Origin: a virus | Reading direction: 5' to 3' (one strand) | IMG/VR virus record: IMGVR_UViG_3300042090_002405 | Coordinates: 17,288 to 81,287 of that record | DNA length: 64,000 nucleotides | Shown here: positions 28,496 to 50,396 of the stretch, piece after piece | How positions within the stretch are numbered: position 1 is the first letter of the stretch | How the letters are laid out: every line of letters starts with the position of its first letter | The notes under the pieces: model-generated | The model's database searches: none | Told to the model about the DNA's origin: nothing | What the model saw: the letters and a program-made list of their open reading frames with translations, nothing else | Made by a program: the position numbers and the translations under genes

Positions 28496-29890
28496 TCACG
28501 GCGCGGCGGTTGTACCGCCGACGTAGAAGGGTGAACCGCCCACGAGCACCTCGAAATAGTGCGTGGGCGCTGTCCCGGTACCGCCGATAGTCTGCCCGGA
28601 GAAGTTGACGAGGCCGCCCGACGTCGCCGCCAACACTAGGTTGCTTCCGCTTGCCGCTGCGAGCTCCAAGATACCGCTCGTCGCGAAGATAGATGCTGTT
28701 CCTCCGGCTGACGCCAAGAAGTATTGACCGCTGCTCGCGTTGAGCTCGAGTTGCCCGGTTGTCTCTAGCGTCGCTACTCCACTCGCCGCCGTGATGAAAA
28801 CGGTTCCAGTGTCCGGGGTGAGTGTGATGTTTGTCGAAGACGTCTCGAGCGTCATGCCCCCCGCGCCCGTCGCATCGAGAACTACCGTAGAGCCCGTCAG
28901 ATGTGCTGCGCCGGCCGCCGCGAGAAGCAGTGTTGCGTTCGCACCATTGCCCTCCAGCATGAGGTCACTCGACGACGTGAGCGTCTGCGCGCCACTTGTG
29001 CCGAGCGTCGTTACATCCGTGGATGGGGCCAGAAGGATTCCGCCGCCTGAAGCGGAGATCTCTACAGACAGAGCTGCGTCAATGTCGATGTTGCCGCCCG
29101 ACGACGTGATCGTGAGCAGAGCGCCGCCCGTGAGCGTCTCGTTGCCACCTGTGCCGAAAGTCGTCGTGTTGTTGGAGGGGGCGATCGTGATGCCGCCCCC
29201 CGCGGTCGAGATGTCTAGACCGCTGCTTCCGATGATTCCGGGGCCGCCGTTGATGGTGACGGCGCCGTTCGAAAATGTTGTGTTGCCGCCCCCTGGGTTG
29301 ACCGCGATCGATCCGGAATTCGTTTCGATCGTGATCTGCGCGCCCCCTAGGGGGGACGACGTGAAAACTGTAAGCGTGTCGTTATCGTTGTTGCCAAGAG
29401 TGGCGCTTCCTCCGCCGAAGCTGTTGCCACCGTTGATCCACGCGTTGGCAGCACCTGCGCCGGTTGCGCCCTGAGGGCCGGTCGCCCCTGTCGTGCCTAC
29501 TCCCGTAGCACCGGCCGCGCCCTGCACGCCAGTTGCGCCCTGTACGCCGGTTGCGCCCGTCGCGCCGCCCCCCGGGCCGGTCGGCCCTTGTAGCCCCGTC
29601 GCGCCGGTCGACCCCGCCCCTGTGGCACCCGTCACTCCCGTTGCGCCCTGCACGCCGGTTGCCCCGGCAACACCCGTCGCTCCCGTGGCCCCCGAGCCGG
29701 GCCCCGTTGCTCCCTGGACGCCCGTGGCGCCGGTCGCCCCTGCTCCCGTCGCACCCTGTACCCCGGTAGCACCCGGCGGGCCCGCAACGCCCGTCGCACC
29801 CGTTGCGCCTCCGCCGGCCCCTCCGCCGCTGCTGGGAGGGCTTTCGTAGGTGTTGGGCGACTTATTTTTGATCCCTGCGATAGACCCCAT
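28496..29890 (-). CDS. Collagen-like (G-X-T) fibre protein
   Basis: About 120 aa of GAT/GVQ/GPT triplets followed by a beta-rich domain; N-terminal [10 protein letters not shown]. Confidence 0.85.
29453..29810 (-). repeat. Collagen Gly-X-Y triplet repeat region
   Basis: [22 protein letters not shown]... Confidence 0.9.
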
Positions 29891-29918
29891 GGAAGAAACT
29901 CCGCGTTGGCTGTGACGG

Positions 29919-31877
29919 TTAGCGGACCGGAGGCGGTGCCGGGAACGCCGGGTGCGTCACTACCGGAGTCTCCATAGGCGTCGCTGGGTACCTTTCAGGA
30001 TCGAGCTTCGGCGGTCGAAGGGCGCGCTCGATCGGATGGTCCAAGAGGAAGCTCGGGACATCCGCCGATTTGATCGTGGGGCCAAGTGGCTGAAGCCCCG
30101 GGACGGGATCGCTTACTCCGACGGGCCCTTGCGGGTAAGGCCCGTACGCTGCGCCCGAAGGCTGGGCACCTCCGCCGTCGAAAAAGTGCCCATGCCTGTG
30201 CCCGTGTCCGTAGTGGGCCGCCCACTGCCGGAGACGATTCCACTTGTCCGATCCGTGCACCGGGGGCCGAGGGCGACCCACGATCGCCTCGAGCCGATGC
30301 GCGTGCACGAGGGGGGCGCCGGGCACCTCGTGGCTCACTCCGGCGAGGGCGGTACGCGCGATGGGCTCCGGGATACCTAGCTTTTTCGCGAGGTCTATGG
30401 AGGAGAGCCCCGCGAGGGCTGGTTGCGATACGAGCGCCGCGGCGGCCTGGTGGGCCAGATCTGCGGCGTTCGCTGGGAGATTTTGTTTCACGTCACGGAT
30501 GGCGGAGGAAAGGAGATCATTCGTCTGCGCGCCGAGGGCGTTGAGCACTTTTCCGACGGGGCCGCCGCTAGCCGCGGGGGGAAGGAGCTGGTGGGCGGCG
30601 GCGTAACCCTTCTTCTGGAGGCCTTGTGCTGTCGAGAGCGCCAACCCCGTGTCGAAGGCATGCGAGGAGGCCTGATCGAGCCCCTGCTTCGCAGTCGCGA
30701 TCTGGGCCAAGACGGGACCGGCTGCCCCCTGCGCGGCTTGCGTGAGCTGGTTACCGATGGCGGCGCCTTGCTGGAGCGCTTGCTGGGCCGCCGGCCCCGC
30801 GGCTTGGCCGATGACCGCCCCAGCGGCGCCCAAAACATCCTGAGGAAGAGGCTTGCCCTCGGCGAGGTTTGCTGCCGCCGTGAGGCCGGAGGTGGCTTCG
30901 GGAGGAACGCCTGCGACCTGAGAGGCGTATTTGGCCTTGTCGCTGAGCCACTGCGTCACTTGCTTCTTTTGATCGAGAATGGCTTGGCCGATGTTCTTGC
31001 CGTGGAGCGCTTCGTCGGTCGCGCCGAGAACCAAAGTTTTTGCGAAGAAGGCGGGGTTGGCCTGCATGTAGCCAGACTTGTACGTCTGCGCGAGGGTGTT
31101 CAGGACCTTGTTCTTCGCGAGGTCCTTACCGATCTTCTTTCCGGCTCCGGTGTGGCCCGCCTCGACGGCGCCGGTGGCCAGGATCGCGGCGGCACCCGCC
31201 CCTGGAATAAACGCCACGGGGCCGACTTTCGTTGCGTCTTGCGCGATCTGCTTGAGGGCTTTCAGTGGCTGGAACTTGAACCCTACCCCTATCGATCCGC
31301 CAGCGCCGGAGACACCCGGCGTTCCGGTTCTGCCACTTTCGAGCTTCGTGGCGCGCGCCTGAAGCACGCTCGCCGCCGCGGGGTAGCCAGGCAAGAGTAG
31401 TGTCGCAAACGACCGTAGCTTCGTCGGATCGGTCTCTTGGTGCGCCGCCGTAAGGACCGCGCTCTCGAGATCCTTCGGCAGGTTCGCGTCGAGGACGGGT
31501 TTACTAGAAGCAACGATCAGATTCGACGGACCGCTCACGCCGATTTGGAACCCGATCGCCGCTCGGCCGCCCCTAGAGATACGCTCGTGCATGGGCCGAG
31601 CGTACCACGACCTACTCGACCACCATCCTGAGAAAATGAGGGGTTCGTGAGCCCGTCCCGGAGAAGTCGGATGCGCACCGCCGTCTTCCCCCGCCTGGTG
31701 TCCCGGCGAGCCATACGTCGGATGCGGTCTCGACGATCTCACTCTGCCGGGGGTACTTCTCTCGTAGGGCTCATGGAGGACGGTCTCCGTGAGTCGGCTC
31801 GCCGAGAGCCCGATCGGCTTGGCTGCCCTGTGGTGGGGCGCCAGGCCGTTCGCGTTTCGGCGGTGGTGAGAGCCCAT
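29919..31877 (-). CDS. Ala/Gly/Gln-rich putative virion (membrane or DNA-entry) protein
   Basis: 652 aa helical low-complexity protein carrying [15 protein letters not shown] and GVSD/GVSG motifs. Confidence 0.65.
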
Positions 31878-32420
31878 CTAGTTTTGTGCGTACGGATGCT
31901 CGCGCCAGTAAGTCATCGCGCGGCCCATCCTCCGCGCAGATCGGCGCTCGGCGCGCGGCGTGTTCCACGCGAGCCCGTCGGTGTACTCGGCAAGCCACGT
32001 ACGAGGGTCCGATCCGCGACAAATTCGAAAACTTTCTTGCACCATTTCGATCGCTACGCCTGATGCCCCCAGCATGCCCGAGCACGTACGGTCGCGCGAC
32101 CGTACGGTCTGAAAGAGACCCCAGGATTTGTTTGAGTCGCCGCCCTTCTTGCACATGGTGACGTCGTCACGAAAGTGACTTTCGTCGGCCGCGATCGCGA
32201 CGAGGAGCAAACCCGTCTTTGCCCGCGCCGCGATGGGATCTCGGTCGGCGAACACCGGCTGCACGTACGGCTGGGAGACGGCGAAGGCGATGTCCCGCGC
32301 GATGGCCTCGTAGCGCGCTTCGGTCACTTCTTCGTTCTCGGTCCACCGATGCTCCTCTACGGGAACGAACGTGTGCATCGCGGCAAGAAGCCAGAGTGTG
32401 AGGTGTAGGATGTTCGGCAT
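31878..32420 (-). CDS. Lysozyme-fold (transglycosylase-like) protein with a signal peptide
   Basis: AIAADESHF...GDSNKSWGLFQ. Confidence 0.65.
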   Translation of the reverse strand: MPNILHLTLWLLAAMHTFVPVEEHRWTENEEVTEARYEAIARDIAFAVSQPYVQPVFADRDPIAARAKTGLLLVAIAADESHFRDDVTMCKKGGDSNKSWGLFQTVRSRDRTCSGMLGASGVAIEMVQESFRICRGSDPRTWLAEYTDGLAWNTPRAERRSARRMGRAMTYWREHPYAQN

Positions 32421-32463
32421 GACCGGCGCTTCTAGCGCGGCAGAGACCGAAGGCCAACCCGTT

Positions 32464-32661
32464 TCATTCACGGGGCGGCGGTCGCGAGCGCTTCTTCCTT
32501 CGCAGGATTGCTTCGACGAGAAGAGTGCGCACGGCATCTGATCGCGAGACGCTATGAGTTTTCTGGGCTCGTTGCATCTCCTCCGCAATCTCATCGATTT
32601 CCTTCATGAGATCGCGTCCAATACGCAGGCCCAGATGTACACCCGTGTCTTCGTGGCTCAT
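32464..32661 (-). CDS. RHH regulator
   Basis: VHLGLRIGRDLMKEIDEIA...SRSDAVRTLLVEAI. Confidence 0.8.
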   Translation of the reverse strand: MSHEDTGVHLGLRIGRDLMKEIDEIAEEMQRAQKTHSVSRSDAVRTLLVEAILRRKKRSRPPPRE

Positions 32662-32709
32662 ACCAATATTGTTGCACAAGCTTGCACAATGTCAAACAGC
32701 ATCTAGTAT
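32662..32709. promoter_or_regulatory. Overlapping divergent promoters with TTGCACAA direct repeats
   Basis: TTGCACAA at 32672 and 32682; rightward TTGCAC-16-TAGTAT; leftward TTGACA at 32695. Confidence 0.6.
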
Positions 32710-32735
32710 GAGCGTCGGAGGCGGGACACGAAAAC

Positions 32736-33902
32736 ATGAAAACCCTTCTTTGCGCGACGATGACGGTGTTTGCGGTGGCGACAACGGGTTGTATGGCAGC
32801 ATCATCGCCATCGCCATCTCCTGTAGAGGAGGCCACAGGAACGACCGAAGAGGCCGCCACGACGACATGCACGAACGACTCGCAGTGCTCTGGCACCACG
32901 CCGTTCTGCACTGGATTGTCCCTCGCGTTGAACGCGAGCAGCACGACGCAGACCATCAACGGAGAGTCCGTCGCCGCGGGCAACTTCGCCGAGTACATGC
33001 CGCAGACGGTCGGGGAGTGCACGGGATGGTCCACGACTAATTCGCGTGCGTCGCAAGTACAGGGATCCTGCGCAGCGGGGCAGATCTGTGTGAACCTGAA
33101 TGGCGGAGCTCAAGGGTCCTGCTACACGACGTGCACGGGATCAGGGCAGGGCACGTGCTCGGCGGGTTTGATCTGCGATTCGAACACGAACGTGTGCTCT
33201 ACGAACGCGTCGGCGTGTGCTTCTGGGCTCGCGGTTTTCGGAAGCACTCCGCTTACCGTGACGTCCAAGGCGACCTACTCGGGTGGCACGGTCACCTACG
33301 GACAAGAGATTGGTGGGTCTGCGATTCCCTCGGCGGGGCACTGGGTGCCTGAGGTGTGGGCAACAACCCCGTCTTGGTCGACCAAAATCAAGGTCAACTT
33401 CAACATGCAAGGCATCTGCACGTGGATCTCGAACAGTGACACGCAAGCGACTTGCACTGCGAGTGACGAGTCTTGGTACGCGACCAACGGCGTCGACGTG
33501 TGTTCGTACTACACGACGGGTGCTGCCGAGGTCTTCTGCATGGAGTCCGACGTGTTCGGGGAGACGGGCGAGCTCGTCGAGTACAGAGCCCTCACTACGA
33601 CGACGCCCTTCGGCGTCACGCAGTCAGCGCTGACTGCCGTGAGCCCGCCCGCTAACTTCACGCTTCCCGCCCGAGGAACCGTTCCTCCCGGTGTGGAGGG
33701 TGTAACGGGCTCGAGCGGGACGACGTGGCAGACACTCGAGGGCCCCGCTGGCACTTCGGGCGGCTATGCCGGATACGGCGGCTATGGCGGCTATGGCGGG
33801 GCCGGCGGCTACAGTGGATATGGTGGTTACGGTATCTACGGCAGCTACGGCGGATACGGCGGGGACTGCGCCTACGGCGGTTGCGGCGGCTTCGGCGACT
33901 GA
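32736..33902 (+). CDS. Cys-rich myxobacterial-type lipoprotein with a Gly/Tyr-rich tail
   Basis: Lipobox TTG-C, EEATGTTEEAAT linker, CxxDxQC repeats, (GGY)n C-terminus. Confidence 0.8.
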   Translation: MKTLLCATMTVFAVATTGCMAASSPSPSPVEEATGTTEEAATTTCTNDSQCSGTTPFCTGLSLALNASSTTQTINGESVAAGNFAEYMPQTVGECTGWSTTNSRASQVQGSCAAGQICVNLNGGAQGSCYTTCTGSGQGTCSAGLICDSNTNVCSTNASACASGLAVFGSTPLTVTSKATYSGGTVTYGQEIGGSAIPSAGHWVPEVWATTPSWSTKIKVNFNMQGICTWISNSDTQATCTASDESWYATNGVDVCSYYTTGAAEVFCMESDVFGETGELVEYRALTTTTPFGVTQSALTAVSPPANFTLPARGTVPPGVEGVTGSSGTTWQTLEGPAGTSGGYAGYGGYGGYGGAGGYSGYGGYGIYGSYGGYGGDCAYGGCGGFGD

Positions 33903-33912
33903 TCCTGAAGTC

Positions 33913-34164
33913 CTATTTGCAGGGGTGCCCGTCCGTACCCGTCGTCGGGTGCCCCTTGCAGGCGGGACGGCCTGGCCACCACGTCCCGGGTTTCGTGGGG
34001 GCAGGTTTGGAAGCGGGTTTGCCGTTCACGTACTTCGGCAGTCCGGGGCCGCAGTGCGCACAGAACTGGGTTGTCTTGGTAGCCGGTCTCTTCTTGGCCG
34101 CCTCGGCGTTACCGACGGCGGCTACTGCGATAGCGACCGTGAGGGCTAGGATGATAGTTCGCAT
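33913..34164 (-). CDS. Small secreted basic protein
   Basis: Signal peptide ending AEA; RBS GAGGAAGG. Confidence 0.6.
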   Translation of the reverse strand: MRTIILALTVAIAVAAVGNAEAAKKRPATKTTQFCAHCGPGLPKYVNGKPASKPAPTKPGTWWPGRPACKGHPTTGTDGHPCK

Positions 34165-34179
34165 TGAATTCTTCCTTCC

Positions 34180-37100
34180 TCACGGGGCCGACGAGTTGAA
34201 CGTTGCCGTGAAGACTTGCGGGTAAATGCCCGGGGCAGTTTGGCATGTGCCTCCCGTGCAAACGTTTGAGGCACAATCAGCATTGTGCACGCACGTGATG
34301 CTCTGTCCGACGTTGGGGACGTTTTGGGTCTGGCAGAGGCCGTTGATGCAAGCGCCAACACCACCAGTTCCTGAGATAGGCGGACAGTCGGTCGAGAGCT
34401 CGCAAGTGGATCCCGTAATGTTGGCCTGGAGTGGATCTAAACCGTTACGGTTATCGGCCCACGTCGTTACCCATTTGCCCCCGCCAACGCCTACTAGTCC
34501 GAAGTCATAATCGCCGATCGTTGTGTTGTATGTCAGGACGCGTTCTGGGGCGGGTGTCTGCGAGCCCGAGCTGATCGTGGTAGTTCCGTGCGGACAAGAT
34601 CCGCCCGTGCACGGGGCAACACCGACCTGAAATCCAAATCCGACGATTTGATACTCAAAATCTTGAGTTTGATTTCCGTAATTACACGAGGCCTGACCTG
34701 CGCCAGGAAATGGGGCCGACGCACCGCCAGAGCAGAAACCACCAACGCATTGACTGGTCGGTCCATTGTAGGCGCAGTCTGCGTTAGAGCCGCACGCGCA
34801 CACTTCAGCGGGCGATGAACTGGTGGGGGGAACATCTACGCAGTTTGCGCAACTTCCGTTAGGCCCATTGCAGCCGGCGGTGCAATCGTTGTAGCCGAGC
34901 GTGGTATTATACGTACAGCCGATTCCGAATCCTAATCCTGTTGGGATTATGCAATCCACATTGATGCCCAATAGCCCGGTAGCAGGCGGCGTTCCGTTGT
35001 TGGTGGTGGGGATTTGGGTGCGATACCCGTAGCCCGTGCACTCGTTGAGCAACACGTTGTTGGCTGCTGTGCCGTACCCCTGCGCTAGAACGCACTGCGG
35101 GTAGCCGGCGTCGGGAGCGATCGGGTCTTGGCCAACTCCGGGGGTGAACGGGGCTGTCGGGAGTGCCGTGCCCGCATCGGTGGGGAAATTGACCCTGACT
35201 GTCTGGTGAAATGTCACGGCGGCGTAAATGTTGCTCCCACCGCTGCCTTGTGTGATTGCGATGTTCGATCCGTACTGATTGCCGGAGATCTCTGCGATAC
35301 CAGATGTGGCCCCGTAGCCCGTATCGTACGTCGGAACGACGAGCGCTCCTCCGTATGCAGCAACCCCTGCTGTGTAGTTCGTGTTCAGGACTTGTACCGG
35401 TTTCGTCGTGGATGGGGATATCATTGACGCCCATTCGTCCGCAACCTGCCCCGCTGTAGCGGCAGGCCATTGCCCCGCGACAGCGCGAAGACCACGGTAT
35501 TGCGTCGCGGCGGCCTGGTATTGCGCTTGGTTGCACCCAGGTTGTCCGAGCACGCATGTGGACGTGAAAACCGGACGCTCGTACACGAACACGAATTCGC
35601 CGGGCGCATTTCCGGGAGCACCGTTAACGAGCGACGAAACAGAACCGGCCCAATACGGATTGACCGCCATTGACACGCGATACCAATGATTGCCGTTACC
35701 GCGAGGAGTAGGCCCAAGTCCTTCGAACAGGGATCCCTGCAGGGATACCTGCGGGACGAAACCAGACCCTGCCCCGTTTGCTCCGCTGTTGTTGTTCGGA
35801 TTGCTCGTAAGGACGAGGGGGTAAGCAGGATTGCCAAGAGTATCCAAGTCCTTGCCCAGAACGTACGTAGTCCAATCGCTAGCGTATCCGTGATACGGGT
35901 TGTCTGAAACGGACAGATACCAAACGAGTCCGACGTTTGTAACCTGATCTCTGGTAGACGAAATCGATCCGGGGGCCAGGAACGGCGCATTGCCCGGCAA
36001 TTGATTGCTCGGCGCTGCACCGCCATTCCAAACCACAGGATATTGCGCCCCCACGTAGATGAGGTAGATGCGGGGCGCACACGGCTGGGTTCCGTTGCCA
36101 CATGTAGCCGGCTTATGGCGCACTGCCATATTCATTTGCCATGGCTGTTGCACCGGCAGGCAATTGCCGTATGTGCCGTTGCCGAGGTTACAGCTATCGA
36201 GATTCAAGAAGTGCAGCCGGTTAGCGTCTCGAGAGCTATTGTAACCGTTGATCGGCGCAACAGACGGGTCTGCGTCCGTCGCAATCGGCGTTTGGTGCAC
36301 CCCATCGACGGCGAACTGCCCAGACGGCAAGCATGCGTCCTGTACGAGCCCACACTGCCCTGTCACGGTGTTCGGTGTCGTCACTGCCGAACCCAATGCC
36401 AACGTGCCGTTGCCTCCTCCGGTGCATCCAGTAAAGCTGGTGGCGGTCATACCGGTGCACGTGACGGTTTGTTCGCCCGGAATCCCGGGAGGAGAAGTGT
36501 TGACAAGGATACTTGCGGGCGCTGCGGGGAAGCCGGCGGTCGACGTGACATTGATCGTTGCTTGGGGAAGTCTCTTGCCCGCAGACGCCGCCGCGATTGC
36601 CGTAGTGGCGGTGCCGATACATTGCACGCCCGCACAGCAACGGGTCGCGTTGCTTTTTTGGGACGCTACGCACGTAGATTGCGACGCACCGAATGCGGAC
36701 TGAACGTACCCAGCAAAGCTCGGTTGACAACTACCGTTTTGGTCTCGAGATGCAGAGGTCCATTCGTTCCAACCGTTTTGCTTGGTTGCAGAGACGCCCG
36801 CTATAGGACCGCAGTTCGCCGGATCTGGGACAGGAAAGGCGTAAGAGTTGTTGCAGGGTACGCCGTTCAAGCAATGCGGGGGGACGGGTGTAAAATGAAA
36901 ACTGCCCGTCGGATCGACCGGAACCTCTGCGAGATATGGGCCTGCCAACGGGTCAGGTAGCCCTGGATTCCGGATCGAGAACGTGCCCGTATTTTGATAT
37001 TGGATGGGTTGTTGTCCTGCGTTTGCAGCATCCCACACCACCTCGAGATTCGCTGGCTGGTTGGGCGTCGGATTGCACCCAGACGTTCCTATGACACACG

Positions 37101-38583
37101 TGTTACCGTCGACGCGCACCATCGGCGCGTCTGCGATTCCAGCTCCGTAAGTCACGTCGTCCATGAACGATCCCATGGAAACGGTGGCGGAGTTCGTAAA
37201 GCTCTTACCACCGTTTGTGCTGACGGTCAGTGTGATGTCCTGGATGCTGCCGCCAGTGGCAAAATTGGATGCTAAAGTTGCCCAGTTATAGAACCCACCG
37301 CCGGCAGCGCTGGCATTTAGCGTGCCATTCTGGGTTGTCCCGCATACGCCAGTCCCACATGCGTAGTTTTGCGGCCCCGGTGCAGAGATCCCGCACGTTC
37401 CGTTAGATATCCCCGGGCACACTAGACCTTGAGGGCAATCGGCATTTGTGTTGCAACTGAAATTCAAGGATGGAGGCGGGAAACCGGAGCCCAACAACGC
37501 AGTTTGCATGTTCCCGCAAATCGAATTGCATCCACCTGCGAACAGTCCCGATCCGCTACTGAGGCTATCATCGCAGAACTGCTCCGCCGCGGTCCCGTCT
37601 TTGCCGTGCGGGCATGTCGCATCGGCGGCGGCTTGTGTAGATCCGGTACAGACACAGAAACCGGGGGATGCCGATGTGCATGTCGAAGGGGTACAAGGAT
37701 CGGTGCCGTCTGGAGTGCAAAGCATCGTTCCGGGACAATCGGATTGCACGAGACATGTCGGCTCGCCGTAGAGAGATCCGTTTGAGGCACACGTCGGCAG
37801 CGTCGGTCCTATGAGCGGTGCTGCTCCCGCCGGAGGTGGAAACGTTTGGGCCTTCGTCTGTACGTAGCTCGCGATGACAGCAAGGTCGTTGCCGGTATTG
37901 CCACTACCCCCCTTCGTGTTGTTTGCGTACGGGACTGCTGTGATCGTGCCGTTGAACGCAAAATCCCCAAACGCCGCGTTGCTCCCGTGGTCTCCACCAG
38001 CACCCCACTTCTGCGAGCAAGCATTTGCGCCTGCCGTGATTCCGTTGGCAGGACAAGCCCACTGGTAAAAATTTGGGTTGTTGGCCGCTACCGTGCTCGT
38101 AGTGGGCCCAGATCCGACACTGACCGTAGAGCTCCAGTTCGAGAACGTGGGCCCCGAAGCCGTCAGTGACGCCTCCGAAAAATGCAGTATCTGCGACCCT
38201 GAAGCGTTTGGATCGCTCACGATCCTCGTCGCGAAGTTATTGACGTACTGCTGACCCCCGCCCTTCATATTCAGGAGCGTTCCGTTGATATCTGCGCCCG
38301 AGATGAGCCCCTTCACGCAACTCGTCGGCGGGGCGCATCCGTTCTGCCCTGCGCCTGTTCCTGGGGGCAGCGTCGGGTCGCACGTAATCCACGAACCGGA
38401 GCAGTGGCTGGGGGTTGTCAGCCACGTATTGCCTGACACCCCCGTGATGAGCGGCCCCGAAGCGCCGAACATCCCCGGCGCGAGCCCCATTCGGTTTCCT
38501 GGGCCGGTGTTGCGACAACACGCCCACACCGCAGCGGCGATGACGAGAAAAGAAGCAGCTAGAGCGGCAATCTTGCGATTCAT
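34180..38583 (-). CDS. Very large Cys-rich exported/virion surface protein
   Basis: N-terminal TM; many CxxxxDCP repeats; Asp-box-like VSTNGGKSF; TWADNRNG. Confidence 0.75.
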   Translation of the reverse strand: MNRKIAALAASFLVIAAAVWACCRNTGPGNRMGLAPGMFGASGPLITGVSGNTWLTTPSHCSGSWITCDPTLPPGTGAGQNGCAPPTSCVKGLISGADINGTLLNMKGGGQQYVNNFATRIVSDPNASGSQILHFSEASLTASGPTFSNWSSTVSVGSGPTTSTVAANNPNFYQWACPANGITAGANACSQKWGAGGDHGSNAAFGDFAFNGTITAVPYANNTKGGSGNTGNDLAVIASYVQTKAQTFPPPAGAAPLIGPTLPTCASNGSLYGEPTCLVQSDCPGTMLCTPDGTDPCTPSTCTSASPGFCVCTGSTQAAADATCPHGKDGTAAEQFCDDSLSSGSGLFAGGCNSICGNMQTALLGSGFPPPSLNFSCNTNADCPQGLVCPGISNGTCGISAPGPQNYACGTGVCGTTQNGTLNASAAGGGFYNWATLASNFATGGSIQDITLTVSTNGGKSFTNSATVSMGSFMDDVTYGAGIADAPMVRVDGNTCVIGTSGCNPTPNQPANLEVVWDAANAGQQPIQYQNTGTFSIRNPGLPDPLAGPYLAEVPVDPTGSFHFTPVPPHCLNGVPCNNSYAFPVPDPANCGPIAGVSATKQNGWNEWTSASRDQNGSCQPSFAGYVQSAFGASQSTCVASQKSNATRCCAGVQCIGTATTAIAAASAGKRLPQATINVTSTAGFPAAPASILVNTSPPGIPGEQTVTCTGMTATSFTGCTGGGNGTLALGSAVTTPNTVTGQCGLVQDACLPSGQFAVDGVHQTPIATDADPSVAPINGYNSSRDANRLHFLNLDSCNLGNGTYGNCLPVQQPWQMNMAVRHKPATCGNGTQPCAPRIYLIYVGAQYPVVWNGGAAPSNQLPGNAPFLAPGSISSTRDQVTNVGLVWYLSVSDNPYHGYASDWTTYVLGKDLDTLGNPAYPLVLTSNPNNNSGANGAGSGFVPQVSLQGSLFEGLGPTPRGNGNHWYRVSMAVNPYWAGSVSSLVNGAPGNAPGEFVFVYERPVFTSTCVLGQPGCNQAQYQAAATQYRGLRAVAGQWPAATAGQVADEWASMISPSTTKPVQVLNTNYTAGVAAYGGALVVPTYDTGYGATSGIAEISGNQYGSNIAITQGSGGSNIYAAVTFHQTVRVNFPTDAGTALPTAPFTPGVGQDPIAPDAGYPQCVLAQGYGTAANNVLLNECTGYGYRTQIPTTNNGTPPATGLLGINVDCIIPTGLGFGIGCTYNTTLGYNDCTAGCNGPNGSCANCVDVPPTSSSPAEVCACGSNADCAYNGPTSQCVGGFCSGGASAPFPGAGQASCNYGNQTQDFEYQIVGFGFQVGVAPCTGGSCPHGTTTISSGSQTPAPERVLTYNTTIGDYDFGLVGVGGGKWVTTWADNRNGLDPLQANITGSTCELSTDCPPISGTGGVGACINGLCQTQNVPNVGQSITCVHNADCASNVCTGGTCQTAPGIYPQVFTATFNSSAP

Positions 38584-40238
38584 CACGCGACCTCGGTGTA
38601 GCGGTTGACACATGAAATGTGCAGCGTGACAGGCACAGCAGTGGCTGGCGCCTGTGAAATTTGAAAGAGCAATGTGCCCGTGAAGGTGCCATCATCGAGT
38701 GCCTGGAAAAGCCAGTTCCCCGTCGCCGGCTGCGCGCCCGCTGTTCCCGTCGTGGTCGTCACAGCGATCTGCCCTGGCGGTCCTGCGACGGGGAAGATGA
38801 TGGGGCCCGAACCGGGCCACGAGCACGATACGGTCGTCTCGAAGGTCGCGAAATCGGCGTAGCTTGCGGAGGTGGCTGTGGTGCTCGTGGGGCCGCTCGT
38901 GAGTGCTGCGCCATTGGCGAATGGAGCGGGGGTTGGCGTGCCGGTAAAAGTCAACGTTCCCACCGCGGCCGACGTCGGCGCGATCGTCGCAGAGTTCGTC
39001 CCATCCGTGACGACATCCCCGGGCGCGAACGCCGGGCCCGTCACGGCGCCAATGCTGATCTCATTCTGCACCTGCCCCTGCGCGACGACGGATATATCGA
39101 GCAGATAGGCCTTCCCGGCCTGGAGCTGAAACGGCCCCGGGGTCGTCCCCGACGCCAGATTAGAGGCGGCGCCGGTGTTGGTGCCAAGAAACGGCTGATC
39201 CGAGAACTGTGCGTCGCCCGGGACCGAGATGGCCCCGCCCGCGAACGCGCGCTGCGTGCTCCGCGTCGCAACGGCCTGATAGCCAGCCGCTTCTGCCGCG
39301 TCTGCGCGCGCCTGGCACTCGATGCCCCGCGCAAACGCGGCGCCCATGTTGACGGAGATCGCTACGGACTGCCGGCCGAGCGCGACATCGCCCGGCGGAA
39401 GCCCTGAAACAGGGGGTGCGATAGAGCCGGCGATGCAGTTGAAGCCCGCGACGAAGGCGTAAGCCGAGTTGGCTTGACAGGAGCCGAATGCCACGCCCCA
39501 CGAGCTCAGGACGGACGCTTGAGGGCCGTACGCGAATCCGCCGATTGCGGTCGGAGCAACAAAGCTGCCGTTGCCGCCTGCAAACGAGTTCTGCCCAGCC
39601 GCGATGTTCTGATTCCCACCTGGCACATAGGCGCCCATGCCGGCGGCGATGTTTCCGATTCCGCCCCCCACACCCGATGCGTACCCCGTGGCGGAGTTCT
39701 TGAGGCCGCCGGCAACGGTTGCGTACGCGCCGACAGTAGGATCCAAGAAGATCCCGCTCGTAGCTGTCGCGGTAGCCCCCGACAACACCCCTTGGAGGGA
39801 ATCGCCGCTGCTGATGGTCCCGCCGGTCACCCCCGCAAGGGTCAGGACAGATCCGGTATCGCTCGCGACAACCGCACTGGCTCCGGAGGTTAGATCGTTG
39901 ACCGATTCACCGACCTGAAAGGTACCGGTAAGAAGATCGTAGCTGACAGTCGCGGCGCCGGCTTGGTTCTGGTCACCGCCCCCTATCGTCGTGTAGTTCG
40001 CCGTTGCGCCGGGGTTCACCCCCGATGTGTCATTGCCCGCAGAGAAGATCCCCGTGGCGTTCGGGTTGACGGCGCTGTTCGTCCCACCGTTGCTACGGTT
40101 AGACTGAATGTCGACCGCCCCGGAGACGGTGTTGAAGACGAACGGGAGCAAGCCGATAACCCCCCCGCTGCCTACCGCCGGCGAAATCGGATAGGTGATC
40201 GGAGACTTGTTTTTTAGTCCAGCGACTACGGCAACCAT
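38583..40238 (-). CDS. Fibre/spike protein with YadA-head-like repeats
   Basis: GGxxNxAxGxxAxVxGG repeats; N-terminal GLKNKSPITY. Confidence 0.75.
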   Translation of the reverse strand: MVAVVAGLKNKSPITYPISPAVGSGGVIGLLPFVFNTVSGAVDIQSNRSNGGTNSAVNPNATGIFSAGNDTSGVNPGATANYTTIGGGDQNQAGAATVSYDLLTGTFQVGESVNDLTSGASAVVASDTGSVLTLAGVTGGTISSGDSLQGVLSGATATATSGIFLDPTVGAYATVAGGLKNSATGYASGVGGGIGNIAAGMGAYVPGGNQNIAAGQNSFAGGNGSFVAPTAIGGFAYGPQASVLSSWGVAFGSCQANSAYAFVAGFNCIAGSIAPPVSGLPPGDVALGRQSVAISVNMGAAFARGIECQARADAAEAAGYQAVATRSTQRAFAGGAISVPGDAQFSDQPFLGTNTGAASNLASGTTPGPFQLQAGKAYLLDISVVAQGQVQNEISIGAVTGPAFAPGDVVTDGTNSATIAPTSAAVGTLTFTGTPTPAPFANGAALTSGPTSTTATSASYADFATFETTVSCSWPGSGPIIFPVAGPPGQIAVTTTTGTAGAQPATGNWLFQALDDGTFTGTLLFQISQAPATAVPVTLHISCVNRYTEVA

Positions 40239-40266
40239 GTCTTATCTCCCTGTCCTATTTCCTATT

Positions 40267-41877
40267 TCAGTTGGCCAGATTGCAGAGACTACCGCCGCCC
40301 TCGACCCATAGGCACCCCAGCGTGGCGCCCAAGTTGGAGTCGGCGTTAGCGGCGCTCGCAGTGATGTTGCACGTAAGCGTGGGTGATGCGACAGTAGGTA
40401 CCCCCAGACATGCTTTGGTCTGACCGTTTAGGGTGATCCCGCCAGTCTCTAGAAACGTTGCGGCGGCCTCGCCAGCTCCGGACGGGTAAGTCACGTGGCC
40501 GTTCGATGTAACGCCTAGGGTCCCTGTGCCCCAAAGGAACGGCCCCAGAGTGGGAAACGAGTCGGAGCTGTTGAGGTTCAGCGAACCGTTTACGGTGAGG
40601 GTCGATCCGTCCAAGTACGCGGTGCCGAGGATCCCGCCGCTGACGTTGATGAGATTCCCGTGGCCCTGCGCGAAAATCACGTCGTTCGTAAATTGTCCAT
40701 AGTTTGGCGTGATGTTGTACGAGTTCCCGGTGCCAAAAAAGCCCGCTGAATAACAAGTGCCAGACGCCTGTAGGCCTGTGACAATAGACGTATTCGAAAG
40801 AGGGCCGCCATACGACGGCAAGACGCCGCCGAGGATTGCCGAGTTGATGAATCCATTTCCTACGAGAGGGCCGGCGTTGGGCGTTGCCACGTAGACCGGA
40901 TAGTTGCTCGTACTCTCGACGAATTCGGTAGCGGCACCGATAGTAATCCCGGCGAAAACATTCGTCGTCGTCGGCGTACGCACGCCGATGTTGTAAAGAA
41001 CGAGACCGTTCGCGAAGGTTGATGTGCTCTCGCCTTGCACTACGGCTCCGGCTGTGGCGATGTTGATTTGCGGCGTCGAGTTGATCGTGACGGTGTCCCC
41101 CGTCGTCCATACGTCTTGCTCTTGCGGATTCTCGCAGTTCTTGAGCTCCGGCGGGGATATTGAGATTGCGCTTGCCGTCTGGCTCATCAGCCACGTCGTG
41201 CCAGACACTAGCTTGTAGAGCCATCCTCTAGAGGCATGCGTTGAGTTGATGACGAGTAGCCCAGGTGAAAGAGAGCCCGCATCGGCACCAGCAAAGGTCA
41301 CCTCGAGAAGCTGCGGCGTAGATCGGTTCTTTGCGGCCACGACCGTGATGGTGGTCGTCTGCACCGTAGTAAGGGCCCCTTCGAGAAGAACGCTTGCACC
41401 CGATTCGAGGAAGTACGGCCCCACGTACCATACGTCAGAGTCGCTCGTGTTCGAACTCATCGCCTTGATCGTCGTGTTCTGCCGGATGCGCGGGCTCATC
41501 GTGCCCCATCGCGCAACGATCTGCGTATACGAAAGGCAGGGGCCGTCGGCGATCCCGGGAATCCCCGACGTGCACGTCGACTGTCCGCACGTGACATTAC
41601 CGTCGCTCGCGCATCCGGAGGTATTGCTGGGATCGACGTACCATGCCGCCTGGCTCCAAGAGCTCGGGCACGTAGGTGCCCCGCCATCACCGGGAGCTGT
41701 CGAGCACAGAGGGGGAAAAACAACAGGGGGCGGCAGAGCGTTTGCCGCACCGAACGTCTGGCCATTCGCGCCGGCCGCAGGGGCAGTTTCGATGGCGGTA
41801 CGTTGGCCGTAGATGCTCACCACCAAGGCGAAGACAGCGCACCCCAGAACGAAAAACGAAAACTTCTTCGACATCAT
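40267..41877 (-). CDS. Membrane-anchored beta-helix-like surface/spike protein
   Basis: N-terminal TM; WYVDPSN..ASDGN...PCLSY motif typical of beta-helix spike N-termini. Confidence 0.7.
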   Translation of the reverse strand: MMSKKFSFFVLGCAVFALVVSIYGQRTAIETAPAAGANGQTFGAANALPPPVVFPPLCSTAPGDGGAPTCPSSWSQAAWYVDPSNTSGCASDGNVTCGQSTCTSGIPGIADGPCLSYTQIVARWGTMSPRIRQNTTIKAMSSNTSDSDVWYVGPYFLESGASVLLEGALTTVQTTTITVVAAKNRSTPQLLEVTFAGADAGSLSPGLLVINSTHASRGWLYKLVSGTTWLMSQTASAISISPPELKNCENPQEQDVWTTGDTVTINSTPQINIATAGAVVQGESTSTFANGLVLYNIGVRTPTTTNVFAGITIGAATEFVESTSNYPVYVATPNAGPLVGNGFINSAILGGVLPSYGGPLSNTSIVTGLQASGTCYSAGFFGTGNSYNITPNYGQFTNDVIFAQGHGNLINVSGGILGTAYLDGSTLTVNGSLNLNSSDSFPTLGPFLWGTGTLGVTSNGHVTYPSGAGEAAATFLETGGITLNGQTKACLGVPTVASPTLTCNITASAANADSNLGATLGCLWVEGGGSLCNLAN

Positions 41878-44330
41878 TGCAGTACCCACGCTGTGCCTGT
41901 GTAGTAGAGGGTCGCGCCCCCACCGGCGGGGATAGACGCGAGAGCGCCGGTGCCGGCATCGAGGACGGTCAACGTGTTTCCGGAGTCATCGGTCCGCGTG
42001 ATCCGTAGTGTCTGCGCAGCAGGCCCGGAGTCGAGAAGCGTGATTGTCGTGTTCACCGCAAGGGACTTGACGGTGTACCAGTTGCCGCCTTGCGTGTAGC
42101 CGGCGGTCGCGCCCGCACCGGTGATCGACAAAGACACCGCACCGCCCGCGGGATTGTTGATTGCTGCGCCTGGGACAGGCCCTGCGAGGTAGCCGCCCAC
42201 TACAACCACGACAACGTTGGCCGAGTAGCTCCCGCCTTGAGCGATAAAGGTGAGCCACGATTGGCCGTCGAATGTGGCGACGGTGCCCGGCGCTCCTGAC
42301 AGCGCAGTCGCCTCTTCGAAACGCGTTCGATAGAACGTGAACTGCGTCGCGACGAGGCTAGGCGAGTCGATCTGGCAATCGTCGTAGGTCTGCGTCGTGG
42401 TCGTCGTGATCGCGACGGTGTCCAAAACAGAGCATCCCGAGACGGCCTGGACGCTCCCACATGACAAGTTGGTCGAGACCCAATTCACGTCATTGGAGAG
42501 TCCTAGCTTCCACGTGGGTGACGCGCCGGACGTGACGACGAGCTGGGTGTCGTTGTTCTCCACGAGGAGCGCAGAGAAGTTCGTTGCGCCGGAAACGTTC
42601 AAGGTGCTGTTGAGAAGCTCGCCGTCCTTGAGGAGGAGAGCGCTTTGGCACGAGCCCGGACCGTCAGTGACGGTCATCGCCATCTCGTTGATGGCCAGTG
42701 CTTCAAAAACGAGGAGCGCTTGCGAGGGGATAAACGCCGTGACGCCGTTGGCCCAATTGACCGTCAAGCCGGTCATCATCACGGGCCCCGTGAATGTCGG
42801 AGCCGCGGGGAAATTGGTCGAAGTGATCTGGATCGATCGACATGGAGGAATCGTCCACGTTTGTGGATCTGGGTCCCACACGTCCGCCGCGGTAGGGGCT
42901 ATCGATCCGACCTCGAACGTGGCCGCATCGTCAGCACTCGTCGGATCCCCTAGCGTCGCAAGCCACGCTTCGGGACTAGAGTACGGGGCGCTCTCGGTGC
43001 CGTTCTGAAAAGCCGCCGGCACGAGGGTATTGCCGTCGATCCAACGAAATCGCGCAAGAGGGACCGCGCCGCCGCCATCCGAAGACTGCCCAAAGATCTG
43101 AAGAACCCAATGGCCGCTTTCAAAATATACTACGACGCTCCCAGGCCCCGTCAGGGTGATAATCGTACCGCTGCCAGCATCTAGGATTTGGAGCTCAGCG
43201 CCCTCCGTATTGTCGGTGCGCGTAAAGCAGATCGTGTCTCCTGGATCGGCGGTGTCCGCCACCGTGATGGTGGTAACGCCCTCCGCAAGGGTTGGGATGG
43301 TGTACCAGTTGCCGCCCTGTTCGTATCCCGACGAAGCACCGGTGCCGATGATCGAAACGGTCACCGATTCCGTAATATTCGCGCCGGGTACTTGCCCCGC
43401 GAGAAAGCCGCCCGTGACAGCGACGATCGTAGAGCCGTACGTGCAATCCGCGTCTTGAAACGCCTTCCACGAGATGCCGTCGAACTCCGCGGTGGGCGCG
43501 GAGAGTACGCACGCTTGTGACCAACTCGTCTGGTTGAAAAAGCACTGCGCCCCCGCCGTTAGACCGGGCGCGCCGATAGACGCTCTCGTGTAGTTCTGGT
43601 TGCCGCTCGTCGTGATCGTACCGCTGTCAGAGACGATCGAATCCTCTGCCTGCAACCCCGCGCAGGTTAGGTTCGTAGAGCTCCATTGACTCCCCTCTTG
43701 AAGCGTGAGCGACCACGTCGGAGTAGCGCTGGACGTTACTTGCAGCTGCGCTTGGGTGCCGCTGATGTCGAGAATCTCGAAAAGAGCCGCTCCTGTCACG
43801 TCGAGCGTGCCTTGCAGGTTGCTGCTACCGAAGATCAACGCAGATGGGGCGGATCCAGCCGCGTCCGTGATCGTCATCGTGAGGCCGGAAATGTTGGCGT
43901 TCTCGACGATGAACGTGGCGATCGTGGGCACGAACGCCGCCGGGGCGTTGTTCCAATTGATTGTCAGTGGTGCGAACGACGGCGCCACCATGTTGAACGC
44001 CATGAGGATGACGTTTCGGCTACTGGGTACAGTCCACGTTTGCGGATTCGGACTCCACGCATCCGCTGCAGCCGGGGAGATGACGCCTAGCTCGGCTGTC
44101 GATGCGTCGTCGGTGCTCGTCGGTGCGCCCAGCGTGTTGAGCCATGCCTCGGGGCTTTGGTACGGCGTCCCGGGTGCGCCGTTCTGCATCGCAGGCGCGA
44201 CGGTCGTGTACGCGTCGATCCATCGTAGCCGCTTCAGCGGAACGTCCGAGAAGGGACCGGAGCCGCCCATGCCCAGCGACCTCTCGTAGGTGAGAGGCGA
44301 TCGATTCTTGATGCCGAGAATAGAGCCCAT
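41874..44330 (-). CDS. Spike protein made of two tandem ~390-aa copies
   Basis: VPLxRxRWID..QNG...PYxSPEAWLxTLGxPTS occurs twice; N-terminal GIKNRSPLTY. Confidence 0.8.
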   Translation of the reverse strand: MGSILGIKNRSPLTYERSLGMGGSGPFSDVPLKRLRWIDAYTTVAPAMQNGAPGTPYQSPEAWLNTLGAPTSTDDASTAELGVISPAAADAWSPNPQTWTVPSSRNVILMAFNMVAPSFAPLTINWNNAPAAFVPTIATFIVENANISGLTMTITDAAGSAPSALIFGSSNLQGTLDVTGAALFEILDISGTQAQLQVTSSATPTWSLTLQEGSQWSSTNLTCAGLQAEDSIVSDSGTITTSGNQNYTRASIGAPGLTAGAQCFFNQTSWSQACVLSAPTAEFDGISWKAFQDADCTYGSTIVAVTGGFLAGQVPGANITESVTVSIIGTGASSGYEQGGNWYTIPTLAEGVTTITVADTADPGDTICFTRTDNTEGAELQILDAGSGTIITLTGPGSVVVYFESGHWVLQIFGQSSDGGGAVPLARFRWIDGNTLVPAAFQNGTESAPYSSPEAWLATLGDPTSADDAATFEVGSIAPTAADVWDPDPQTWTIPPCRSIQITSTNFPAAPTFTGPVMMTGLTVNWANGVTAFIPSQALLVFEALAINEMAMTVTDGPGSCQSALLLKDGELLNSTLNVSGATNFSALLVENNDTQLVVTSGASPTWKLGLSNDVNWVSTNLSCGSVQAVSGCSVLDTVAITTTTTQTYDDCQIDSPSLVATQFTFYRTRFEEATALSGAPGTVATFDGQSWLTFIAQGGSYSANVVVVVVGGYLAGPVPGAAINNPAGGAVSLSITGAGATAGYTQGGNWYTVKSLAVNTTITLLDSGPAAQTLRITRTDDSGNTLTVLDAGTGALASIPAGGGATLYYTGTAWVLQ

Positions 44331-44357
44331 GGATCCCTCGTTCGCCCGCGCTTGGCC

Positions 44358-44861
44358 TCAGACGCTCACGACTTCGACGGTAAGGCGCGCCGACGGCGAA
44401 ACGGAAGGCGGTTTACCCAAAACCGTCGCGCTCGTCGCTCCGTCCTGACAAATCGCGTCGAGTTGCACCGTGTAACTACCTGTCGAGGTCACCGGCACTT
44501 CGAAGACACGCGTGACGGTCTGGCTCGGCATGATAATCGTCGAGTTTTCAACACCGTCCTGAATAACCGGAGGTCCGGGGGGTTGAGATATGAATATGCC
44601 CGTGAAGATCGTCCCATTTCCAGCGATGGAGGTGTAATTGACCGTCGCATGGACGATGATCTTCTGCCCTGCGGCCGCAAGGATCCCAGTGATCGTCACG
44701 AGGGGCGTATCGACGGAGTCGCTAACCGTGATCGTGTCCGCCCCGTTGTCCCCGTAGTACGTCGCGACGAGTCCCGGCGGTACCGCCATCCCCGAGCCCA
44801 CGGCGGGAGATTGCTCATAGGTGCTCGGGGAGCGATTTTTGGTGCCTGTCAGGTAGCCCAT
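44358..44861 (-). CDS. Short fibre/vertex protein with a C1q/BclA-CTD-like beta domain
   Basis: N-terminal GTKNRSPSTY followed by a beta-sandwich pattern. Confidence 0.7.
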   Translation of the reverse strand: MGYLTGTKNRSPSTYEQSPAVGSGMAVPPGLVATYYGDNGADTITVSDSVDTPLVTITGILAAAGQKIIVHATVNYTSIAGNGTIFTGIFISQPPGPPVIQDGVENSTIIMPSQTVTRVFEVPVTSTGSYTVQLDAICQDGATSATVLGKPPSVSPSARLTVEVVSV

Positions 44862-44992
44862 CGAAGATCCTTTTTCTTTCTTGCCGTGATCCACTGCACG
44901 AAGCCGTGTCGTGGCAGATCACGGTTTGAGAGTCAGGATCTCGACGTCGTCACGTTTTGCTTGCTGCCGATCGACTTTTGAAAAACTCGCGT

Positions 44993-45756: not shown

Positions 45757-45941
45757 CGGCGTGCGGAGAGCACCTCGAGAAGATGCGCAGCTACAGCGGG
45801 GCGGAGTTTGATGATGCCGACCGAACCGGCTTCGGCATCGTCGTCGGTGAGCTCGACAGAACCGTCCTCGAAGAGGCGTATTTTCGGACAGCGCTTGTAG
45901 CCACAGCACATTGTCTCTCCGTGGATGACTTTCGGGTTCAT
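45753..45941 (-). CDS. Small hypothetical protein
   Basis: CCGYKRCP motif; coupled. Confidence 0.55.
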   Translation of the reverse strand: MNPKVIHGETMCCGYKRCPKIRLFEDGSVELTDDDAEAGSVGIIKLRPAVAAHLLEVLSARR

Positions 45942-45946
45942 CGCTT

Positions 45947-47612: not shown

Positions 47613-47620
47613 GGTGTCTC

Positions 47621-48586
47621 CTAGGGGATGGTCCTCGGGTTGATGCCGGCGAAGCCGACGAGATTGTCTTGAGGAAGGTTCTCGTCGAAGGCCATGGCCC
47701 CATAGATCGAGCCGTACTGGGCGAAGTCGCTATACGCGACGAGGAATTTGTCTTCTTCCGATAGCGCGGCGAACTGCTGAAGTTGAAGAGGTGTGGCGTT
47801 CAGAAACGAGGGGTTCGTCGTCGGATCGTTCTGCCTGACGCTGGCGAAAAAAACGACGTCGCACGGCACCGGAATAGGGATATCGAGCAACCGCTCGGAC
47901 TGATCTGTTCGCCCGCGATACCGGAGATCGTGGATGTTGCCGAGCGAAGCCGCCATCGGTACGCCCCAAGGCCTTCCCCCGTTGGGCGGCGTGTACGCGG
48001 TCGGCGCGAAGGGCGGACCCGCGAAGGTCTCGTAGAGGAGAGCCGGCGAAAGGGCGTCCTCGTAAATCAGCCCGTCGGTGTTTGCAGGATTGCGGGTGTC
48101 CCTGCGGGACCGATTGATCACCATAACGTGCCAGGAGATGTTGCCGCCGGGCGGGTGCCACAGCGGGTTTTTGATCTCCTTGCGAAACGTGACGGTACTC
48201 CCGACGGGCGGACCCGGAGGGGGCGGAGGAGGCAACTCACTGTTCGGCGTGAGGGGATCTGTCCCCGACGGGAGCCGCGCAACCATCTCGACGTACTGCC
48301 GAATTCCGACGAGCCGCACGCCGACCTCGGCGGATCCGAACGTCGCACGGGCGAGGATGAAGAGATACCGGCCCCCGAGCGCCGCCGTTGGGGTCGAAGG
48401 GACAACGAGCCCCGTGTACGCGTTCGTCTGGTACGGATCACTTCCGATGAAGCCAAATTCGGGGTTGGGCCCCGCCGTGATGAGCTCGTAACGACCACGC
48501 GCGAGCGGCTGACGGATCCCTTCGCCGACCCCGCCGGGCCAAGTGCGGAGTTCGAGGATCTTGTCGCTACGGGCGTGAGAGGACAT
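47621..48586 (-). CDS. Putative minor capsid/penton protein
   Basis: Beta-rich (LVGIRQYV, LDIPIPVPCDVVFFASVRQ), downstream of the capsid pair. Confidence 0.45.
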   Translation of the reverse strand: MSSHARSDKILELRTWPGGVGEGIRQPLARGRYELITAGPNPEFGFIGSDPYQTNAYTGLVVPSTPTAALGGRYLFILARATFGSAEVGVRLVGIRQYVEMVARLPSGTDPLTPNSELPPPPPPGPPVGSTVTFRKEIKNPLWHPPGGNISWHVMVINRSRRDTRNPANTDGLIYEDALSPALLYETFAGPPFAPTAYTPPNGGRPWGVPMAASLGNIHDLRYRGRTDQSERLLDIPIPVPCDVVFFASVRQNDPTTNPSFLNATPLQLQQFAALSEEDKFLVAYSDFAQYGSIYGAMAFDENLPQDNLVGFAGINPRTIP

Positions 48587-49797: not shown

Positions 49798-50396
49798 TGC
49801 GCGATCATCAGAACTGAAAGATCTGGAGACTCAATCCCAAGTTTGCGCAAACGGCATCGACATTCCGCATCACTGAGATCGGAGACGCTCTTGTCCAACA
49901 ACTGTTGGCCCAAAAATGTGAGCGTTACATTGAACGGTACGCTCACCGGAGTTTGTGTGAGAATAGCGCTCACCTTAACATTAGATTGCTTCAATAGAGG
50001 CCAGCCATTCGGCCACGCCAATGCGATTACATCGAACAGATTACCCAAATCTGTAAAGTCATCGTTTATCGAATATTTAGGGCCGCCATATACATCCAAC
50101 TGAATCCCAACGCCAGTTTGACCCGATTGCTTCAACTGGTTGAAGTACAGCGATTGAAACGGCGACCCGGGAAACGAGTTCTGCTGAAACAGGTTGTACG
50201 ATACACGCTGAATCAGCGTGTCCTGCGTCAGGTTATTGTCGAACGATCCGACAATCGGTGGTGCGTTGACAACCGACGAGGAGAACTGGATCGGGACGTC
50301 GACCACGAACGGGACGATCGGAACGCCGACGACCAACCCGTAAGCTAGTTTAGGAGCCCACAAGGCGAGCTCACGAATATTTGGCTTCGGTTCCAT
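49794..50396 (-). CDS. Putative small single-jelly-roll major capsid protein
   Basis: 200 aa, all-beta pattern, WPLLKQSNVKVSA...VTLTFLG C-terminus; follows the larger capsid candidate. Confidence 0.55.
   Translation of the reverse strand: MEPKPNIRELALWAPKLAYGLVVGVPIVPFVVDVPIQFSSSVVNAPPIVGSFDNNLTQDTLIQRVSYNLFQQNSFPGSPFQSLYFNQLKQSGQTGVGIQLDVYGGPKYSINDDFTDLGNLFDVIALAWPNGWPLLKQSNVKVSAILTQTPVSVPFNVTLTFLGQQLLDKSVSDLSDAECRCRLRKLGIESPDLSVLMIAQ

Follow-up and report, generated by a model that had tools for sequence, protein, structure and literature searches.

Why do four fiber-like proteins with dissimilar bodies, encoded close together in one viral genome, begin with the same short peptide? This question is raised by bases 17,288–81,287 of the IMG/VR contig IMGVR_UViG_3300042090_002405, a stretch of 64,000 nucleotides that is referred to here as the window, in which four open reading frames (ORFs), all on the minus strand, start with a peptide of the form G-x-KN[KR]SP-x-TY (the tag). 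The evidence gathered from the window and from related viral loci favors, with moderate confidence, the view that this N-terminal peptide is a plug by which the proteins attach to the virion.

The tagged ORFs, as identified by translation, start at 29890, 40238 (MVAVVAGLKNKSPITYPISP), 44330 (MGSILGIKNRSPLTYERS) and 44861 (MGYLTGTKNRSPSTYEQSP), and the motif is located at residue 6–16 in each of them. When all six frames of the window and of the complete 81,287-bp genome were scanned, both KN[KR]SP and G.KN[KR]SP.TY turned up at these four ORF starts only, and not at the random positions that were named in the original prediction as an outcome speaking against it. A degenerate DNA pattern of the motif had four matches in the genome and none in 100 dinucleotide-preserving shuffles. 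DNA alignment indicated that synonymous positions differ at most tag codons (GGG/GGA/GGC, AAA/AAG, AAT/AAC, AAG/CGA/CGC, TCG/TCT/TCC, CCC/CCG/CCT and TAC/TAT), and since synonymous codons vary between the copies, conservation acts on the peptide, as had been proposed. The same alignment revealed Shine-Dalgarno-like motifs (GGAG/GGGAG/GAGGG/AAGGA) 6–9 nucleotides 5' of all four ATGs, which argues that the starts of the tagged ORFs are well placed. For the ORF starting at 44861, a GTG start at 44894 is formally possible, but its ribosome-binding site and the starts in all relatives favor the ATG at 44861.

Directly after each tag there is a Pro/Ser/Gly-rich linker of 8–15 residues, and the bodies that follow displayed no mutual blastp similarity at E<1e-4 when the first 20 residues were removed. 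A tag profile found exactly four sites in the window's own genome, with scores of 29–35 bits (E 2e-9 to 1e-7 per genome) that are not independent, because the profile alignment includes these four tags. The translations and scans thus upheld the original description of four fiber-like proteins in which a common N-terminal motif is joined by a Gly/Ser linker to different bodies.

The labels given earlier to the individual bodies held in part. Protein 1 (464 amino acids (aa), 28496..29890, minus strand, tag codons 29843–29890) consists of the tag, a Ser/Pro/Gly linker, a collagen-like G-X-Y region (residues ~28–146) and a Gly/Thr/Ala/Ser-rich C-terminal body. Its collagen label was confirmed by ~37 G-X-Y triplets in runs of at least four between residues 28 and 146 and by matches to phage collagen-like tail-fiber PHROG families (best phrog_6320, E 1.3e-16); the match to Pfam Collagen (E 0.001) was under the cut-off. 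The sole basic residues of this protein, K8 and K10, are both in the tag. Protein 2 (551 aa, 38583..40238, minus strand, tag MVAVVAGLKNKSPITYP) has one extra residue ahead of the Gly, and its tag is followed by a linker and an Ala/Gly/Thr-rich body. No Pfam or PHROG family was found for it, with UspA1 appearing only at E 0.33, and its designation as YadA-like could not be verified; from residue 31 on, its body has a homolog in the related locus L007 (29% identity, E 1e-11). In protein 3 (818 aa, 41874..44330, minus strand, tag MGSILGIKNRSPLTYE), tag and linker precede a module of ~400 aa in two tandem copies (44.6% identity, E 1.7e-92), in agreement with its label as duplicated, and single-copy homologs of this module carrying a tag of the GRGRY type described below are present in eight related loci. 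Protein 4 (167 aa, 44358..44861, minus strand, tag MGYLTGTKNRSPSTYE) has a linker and a small beta-rich body without a family match in Pfam or PHROG, which leaves its C1q-like label unverified.

In order to place the tag in a wider context, related loci were recovered with a 449-aa protein (50502–51851) of the window as the query, yielding 29 viral loci with 65–78% identity on contigs of 4–125 kb. A strict scan of IMG/VR for the motif gave four chance matches and no true match outside the window genome, because the relatives use another variant of the tag. Forty-three ORFs in the 29 loci start with M-x-x-h-h-G-x8-T-Y-P, mainly as M-x-x-[IV]-[IV]-G-R-G-R-Y-A-R-E-T-Y-P or close variants. Alignment of the relatives' tags with the four window tags showed G6 and Y15 to be invariant, with M1 and P16 nearly so; in the alignment of the four window proteins and 37 tags from relatives, Gly was found at residue 5–7 and Tyr at 14–16, and the tag Tyr always falls at ORF residue 14–16. 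In line with the expectation that related genomes would have the motif only at the N-termini of fibers, the family-wide form is strictly N-terminal; the strict motif of the window has no match elsewhere.

The window tags lack the basic core GRGRYARE between Gly and Thr-Tyr and have [ILT]KN[KR]SPx in its place, and judged from these alignments the window tag is a divergent, lineage-specific form, designated K-type, of the family-wide tag. Two related loci, L015 and L028, combine GRGRY-type tags with two intermediates, MTHIAGIKRRSPETYD and MSKIAGLKGRSPETYP (IKRRSPE and LKGRSPE), that bridge to the K-type and were seen in no other related locus. When 15 related records were searched whole with the tag profile, 13 had 3–10 tagged sites, almost all of them matching from profile position 1, and the most divergent subgroup, with genomes of 117–125 kb, retained MSF[IV]IGRGR[TY]ARETYP. 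The two exceptions were a complete genome with a weak hit only and the 29-kb fragment L007. Three fibre-like ORFs at L007 11447–14498 (78–80% capsid identity) start with MANFRALTIGG..., MSSTAPIVLKNGIPTVG... and MHVHNPIFDS..., none with a recognizable tag; the second of them is the homolog of window protein 2, and the LKN in its start may be a remnant of a K-type tag.

A profile search of 5.8 billion proteins, limited to longer proteins, returned 76 matches at E<=0.01, all 76 with the tag at the extreme N-terminus. Most of these matches represent a conserved 'class B' protein of 165–245 aa with the pattern M[ST]EFVGRTGSxRVYSYPE...FARNFATGPK, which is absent from the window genome; window protein 4 was considered as a member of this class, and the comparison showed no relation. 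Blastp placed 47 tagged proteins in 25 clusters. Their bodies range from repeat-free proteins of 145–180 aa to solenoids and collagen fibers of more than 1,400 aa, and in the relatives include Collagen (Pfam E 1.8e-135 and 1.6e-74) and an Ice_binding-like beta-solenoid (E 4.6e-45), with the rest matching nothing known. The tag is basic, in contrast to the acidic bodies, and it is strongly conserved, whereas the bodies turn over between close relatives.

The tagged proteins might not belong to the virion at all, but might be found on the surface of the infected cell or be secreted, the tag being a non-classical export or localization signal common to them. Two untagged genes that lie between the tagged ones suggest that the region encodes envelope-directed proteins, as both products have hydrophobic N-termini of the signal or membrane-anchor kind: a Cys-rich protein of 1,477 aa (window 34180–38613, minus strand) and a protein of 536 aa (window 40267–41877, minus strand). 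No homolog of either was found in the 29 related loci, and the two may stand for a second mode of surface-protein anchoring, by way of the membrane. The tag itself has no hydrophobic core and lacks the twin-arginine-plus-h-region design. Within the first 50 residues of the 47 tagged proteins, the best Kyte-Doolittle window of 15 residues had a median of 0.59 and a maximum of 1.87, and the absence of a hydrophobic core, together with the Gly/Ser/Pro linker after the tag, ruled out a Sec or Tat signal peptide. N-myristoylation (MG...) was also ruled out, as one tag starts with MVAVVAG and the translation signals are bacterial. Moreover, the tag was seen in this virus family only, on contigs of 1–130 kb which, wherever a check was possible, also carry its capsid-candidate genes. 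The tagged genes form part of a late cluster beside the capsid genes; in the related loci most of them follow the capsid-candidate operon on the same strand, no more than ~12 kb downstream. A location outside the virion is thus very unlikely.

A second possibility is that the tag is a processing or packaging signal, that is, a propeptide or capsid-targeting sequence that brings proteins to the assembling particle or to the viral protease and is then cleaved. In phage T4, the capsid targeting sequence, an N-terminal peptide of ~10 residues on the unrelated proteins IPI-III and Alt, directs them into the particle. The strictly N-terminal place of the tag at a constant distance from Met1 would suit such a signal, as would a conserved gene upstream of the capsid candidate for a 220-aa transglutaminase-like putative Cys protease (window 54330–54992, minus strand; Pfam Transglut_core E 0.0023, below the cut-off). 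This protein, a candidate maturation protease or cross-linking enzyme judged by its sequence, has 62–64% identity in relatives and is encoded upstream of an Arg-rich 701-aa protein and the capsid candidate. The common tag form I-I-G-R-G, which we take to resemble cleavage sites of the adenoviral-protease type, (I/L/M)XGX-G, was also counted in favor of processing. The T4 sequence, however, sends small proteins to the capsid interior and is cleaved by the prohead protease, whereas the tagged bodies are long, fiber-like and acidic, and collagen fibers and solenoids whose length reaches more than 1,400 aa are improbable as internal proteins. In addition, of the two Gly residues in the putative cleavage motif, the K-type tags of the window lack the second, and cleavage is compatible with docking, since the collagen-like spore protein BclA does both. 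A signal of this kind, in place of a plug, is considered unlikely.

The tag might alternatively be recognized by a modifying enzyme or a chaperone, such as a glycosyltransferase acting on the fibers or a nucleator of trimerization, and not by a socket on the virion. Two glycosyltransferase-like genes adjoin the collagen-like tagged gene, one of the GT1 family (26032–27243, E 2e-12) and one with a weak Anp1-like match (27835–28488), and glycosylation is known for collagen-like surface proteins, BclA being an example. These genes are not kept beside the tagged genes in the related loci inspected. The bodies also differ greatly in fold and size, with repeat-free proteins of 145–180 aa among them, and a 16-mer with invariant Tyr and Gly and a flexible linker fits a tether better than an enzyme site. 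Recognition by an enzyme or chaperone is therefore regarded as improbable, and all three alternatives fit the range of bodies less well than a docking plug does.

A docking plug is the best reading of the tag because of its fixed N-terminal position, the invariant Gly and Tyr that frame its basic, variable middle, and the flexible linker, and because the bodies include collagen, an obligate trimer, occur as many types per genome, and turn over while the tag is conserved. The N-terminal peptide of 16–17 residues would act as a short plug for one conserved socket on the particle, possibly folded into a small hairpin whose stems are h4-h5 and T14-Y15 and whose turn begins at G6, and the flexible Pro/Ser/Gly linker would join it to the body. 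Any fiber-like body bearing the plug could then be mounted on the virion, at a vertex or a facet, where it may bind a receptor, and the virus would be able to display several types of adhesin or fiber and to swap them through recombination. The window motif G-x-KN[KR]SP-x-TY would represent a lineage-specific re-keying of the GRGRYARETYP plug used across the family. The docking code put forward in the original prediction thus gained support from the tag, its N-terminal position and the diverse bodies, and the docking on the virion itself is inferred.

Plugs of this kind are already known in other viruses. The adenovirus fiber tail FNPVYPY binds a cleft between two penton-base monomers (PMC8156859), and the resemblance lies in a short conserved N-terminal peptide on a variable fiber, followed by a flexible segment that accommodates a trimer at a site with a different symmetry, and in a jelly-roll-type capsid, which is probable in the window virus. 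No Pfam or PDB sequence match was found for the window tagged proteins, however, and the tag has no likeness to FNPVYPY beyond Tyr-Pro. Adenoviruses carry one or two fibers, in contrast to four distinct tagged proteins per genome here and up to 10 elsewhere in the family; docking on the penton base is known there, whereas here docking is proposed and no penton base was recognized, in a virus whose host is presumably a bacterium.

In the secondary receptor-binding protein (RBP2) of Klebsiella podophages, a conserved peptide of 29 aa was shown by experiment to be required for assembly into the virion and to work also when moved onto a foreign body (PMC13352976, PMC6872550). The RBP2 proteins of KP32, K11 and KP34 follow the same plug-in logic, an N-terminal peptide of up to 30 residues being followed by an unrelated body, but the peptide is unrelated to the tag, is found on one protein instead of many, and docks in a tailed virion on the T4gp10-like branching domain of RBP1; neither a tail nor such a domain was recognized in the window virus. 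A further parallel to the viral tag is the N-terminal motif that targets the collagen-like BclA to the exosporium (PMC4674009). BclA and BclB of Bacillus anthracis differ in that they belong to a cellular spore structure, have an unrelated motif and lose their extreme N-terminus by proteolysis on attachment. The present peptide, its spread over up to 10 proteins per genome and the virus lineage were not described in the literature searched, and what is new is the divergent K-type variant, its L015 intermediates and the apparent lack of a tag in the fragment of the closest relative.

Three conserved proteins of the capsid cluster, all encoded in the window genome as in other family members, may provide the socket. 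The first is the 449-aa protein (50502..51851, minus strand), a capsid-protein candidate. Its gene is conserved better than any other and serves as the anchor of the family, and public data contain 188 clusters of its relatives at 50% identity. Structure prediction from a shallow alignment failed (predicted local distance difference test (pLDDT) 34), whereas 84 diverse sequences gave a confident beta-rich model (pLDDT 84.9, predicted template modeling score 0.84). A Foldseek comparison of this model with PDB and BFVD returned nothing at E<1e-3, the weak top rows being papillomavirus L1 and CRESS/anellovirus capsids, and in the ESM Atlas the protein had only sub-threshold feature matches (0.86) to Cressdnaviricota capsid clusters. 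The candidate looks jelly-roll-like rather than HK97-like; tblastn against 50,697 GenBank phage records gave no match. Its N-terminus (residues 1–14), MSRSIIGKKSAKWG (S-I-[IV]-G-[RK]-x4-5-[FWY]-G in relatives), loosely resembles the tag (h-h-G-basic-...-aromatic), and if real, this likeness could mean that the tag mimics an arm of the capsid protein. The likeness was not supported by the tag profile, which scored ~1 bit on the N-termini of all three proteins, and is possibly due to chance.

The second candidate socket is a 200-aa protein (49794..50396, minus strand) encoded directly downstream of the capsid candidate, which may be a second capsid protein or a penton protein. It was found in 29 of 29 loci with 54–74% identity, public data hold 547 clusters of it at the 90% identity level, and searches of Pfam, PHROG, NCBIfam and PDB sequences found no match. 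The third is a beta-rich 321-aa protein (47621..48586, minus strand) encoded between the capsid genes and the tagged genes, likewise found in all 29 loci (48–68% identity; 492 clusters at 90% identity), for which neither a family nor a PDB match was found and the ESM Atlas gave nothing usable. Profiles of the three proteins also found no match in a PDB sequence search. In the locus L029 (11311–12614), the 200-aa protein is present as two tandem paralogues (228 and 207 aa), and a tagged gene for a 160-aa protein lies directly between these and the 321-aa homolog. In the window, the 200-aa and 321-aa genes are separated by a GIY-YIG endonuclease gene (48586–49797, minus strand; Pfam E 3.6e-8), which has a homolog at the same place in only five of the 29 related loci and thus looks like a mobile homing-endonuclease insertion in the capsid-gene cluster.

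Several observations weigh against a docking plug. The L007 record, the closest relative (29 kb, 37% complete), has fiber-like genes without a recognizable tag, suggesting that the tag may be dispensable or replaceable. The transglutaminase-like protease encoded nearby makes a role of the tag in processing possible, and the conserved neighbors that are candidates for the socket belong to no known family. Searches with Pfam, PHROGs and NCBIfam recognized no terminase, portal, HK97 capsid or tail protein. Walker-A motifs were restricted to the D5-like helicase, the SF1 helicase, a MoxR-like AAA_5 protein and the Sak4-like AAA_24 protein, and no FtsK/HerA-type (A32-like) packaging ATPase was recognized among them. 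Private substitutions of the 321-aa protein at alignment columns 150 and 275/276, found in the window and in L015, the two genomes with K-type tags, are a weak and anecdotal hint at covariation of the socket, the independent lineages being too few.

The viral contig (81,287 bp, 62% G+C, estimated completeness 98%) has near-identical counterparts in several wetland metagenomes. The structural module matched nothing in Pfam, PHROGs or NCBIfam, and scanning 30 proteins against these databases identified no tail, baseplate or gp10-like family, although highly divergent versions are possible. A tailless jelly-roll virion is predicted for the window virus and is plausible, indeed rather probable; the group considered for comparison was the Varidnaviria-like viruses, which have an internal membrane and a major capsid protein with a vertical single or double jelly-roll fold. 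A CDP-alcohol phosphatidyltransferase (phospholipid synthase) domain (window 61439–61873, plus strand; Pfam E 1.8e-10, above the cut-off) is encoded amid genes for small membrane proteins, and this gene content is compatible with a membrane-containing particle or with remodeled host lipids.

Genes for replication and integration were recognized by their products, namely a D5-like primase-helicase, SNF2 and SF1 helicases, a Sak4-like ATPase, an RNA ligase and two tyrosine integrases. The integrase genes are located at L002 8949–9836 (minus strand) and window 19068–20357 (plus strand), with Pfam E 3e-11 and PHROG integrase E 6.6e-30, and one relative is a provirus in the IMG/VR classification. 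The integrases and the provirus call suggest that the lineage may be temperate; no integrated copy of it was found in GTDB genomes, where the sole matches were a 5.8-kb contig binned with a Binatia metagenome-assembled genome and one spurious hit of 15 residues. Shine-Dalgarno sites and lipoprotein-type signal peptides indicate that the host is presumably a bacterium. Wetland metatranscriptome contigs from one library match parts of window 32000–51900 at >=99% identity, among them the body of protein 3 (43226–43490) and the capsid candidate (50478–50843 and 51558–51900); carry-over of DNA is possible, and their depth cannot rank the genes.

Taken as a whole, the observations could reflect a plug-and-socket system in an undescribed, abundant lineage of large (60–125 kb), tailless jelly-roll viruses of bacteria, in which the 321- or 200-aa protein accepts up to 10 fibers and the window virus has re-keyed its plug from GRGRYARE to [IL]KN[KR]SPx, but this complete scheme is put forward only tentatively. 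If the re-keying is true, covariation with the socket could locate the binding site and yield an orthogonal pair of docking codes, and the K-type tag, the bridging forms in L015 and the closest relative, which apparently lacks the tag, form a natural series for finding the socket. The lineage, whose conserved core proteins make up ~500 clusters at 90% identity, is of interest in itself, as its structural module has no family match and its capsid candidate is jelly-roll-like rather than HK97-like in look. If the tag is a docking plug, it would provide a simple rule for reading receptor-binding repertoires from metagenomes (at the N-terminus, a Gly near residue 6 and Thr-Tyr-Pro near residues 14–16) and would explain how many host-recognition fibers are mounted and exchanged on one particle in an abundant uncultivated lineage of wetlands and soils.

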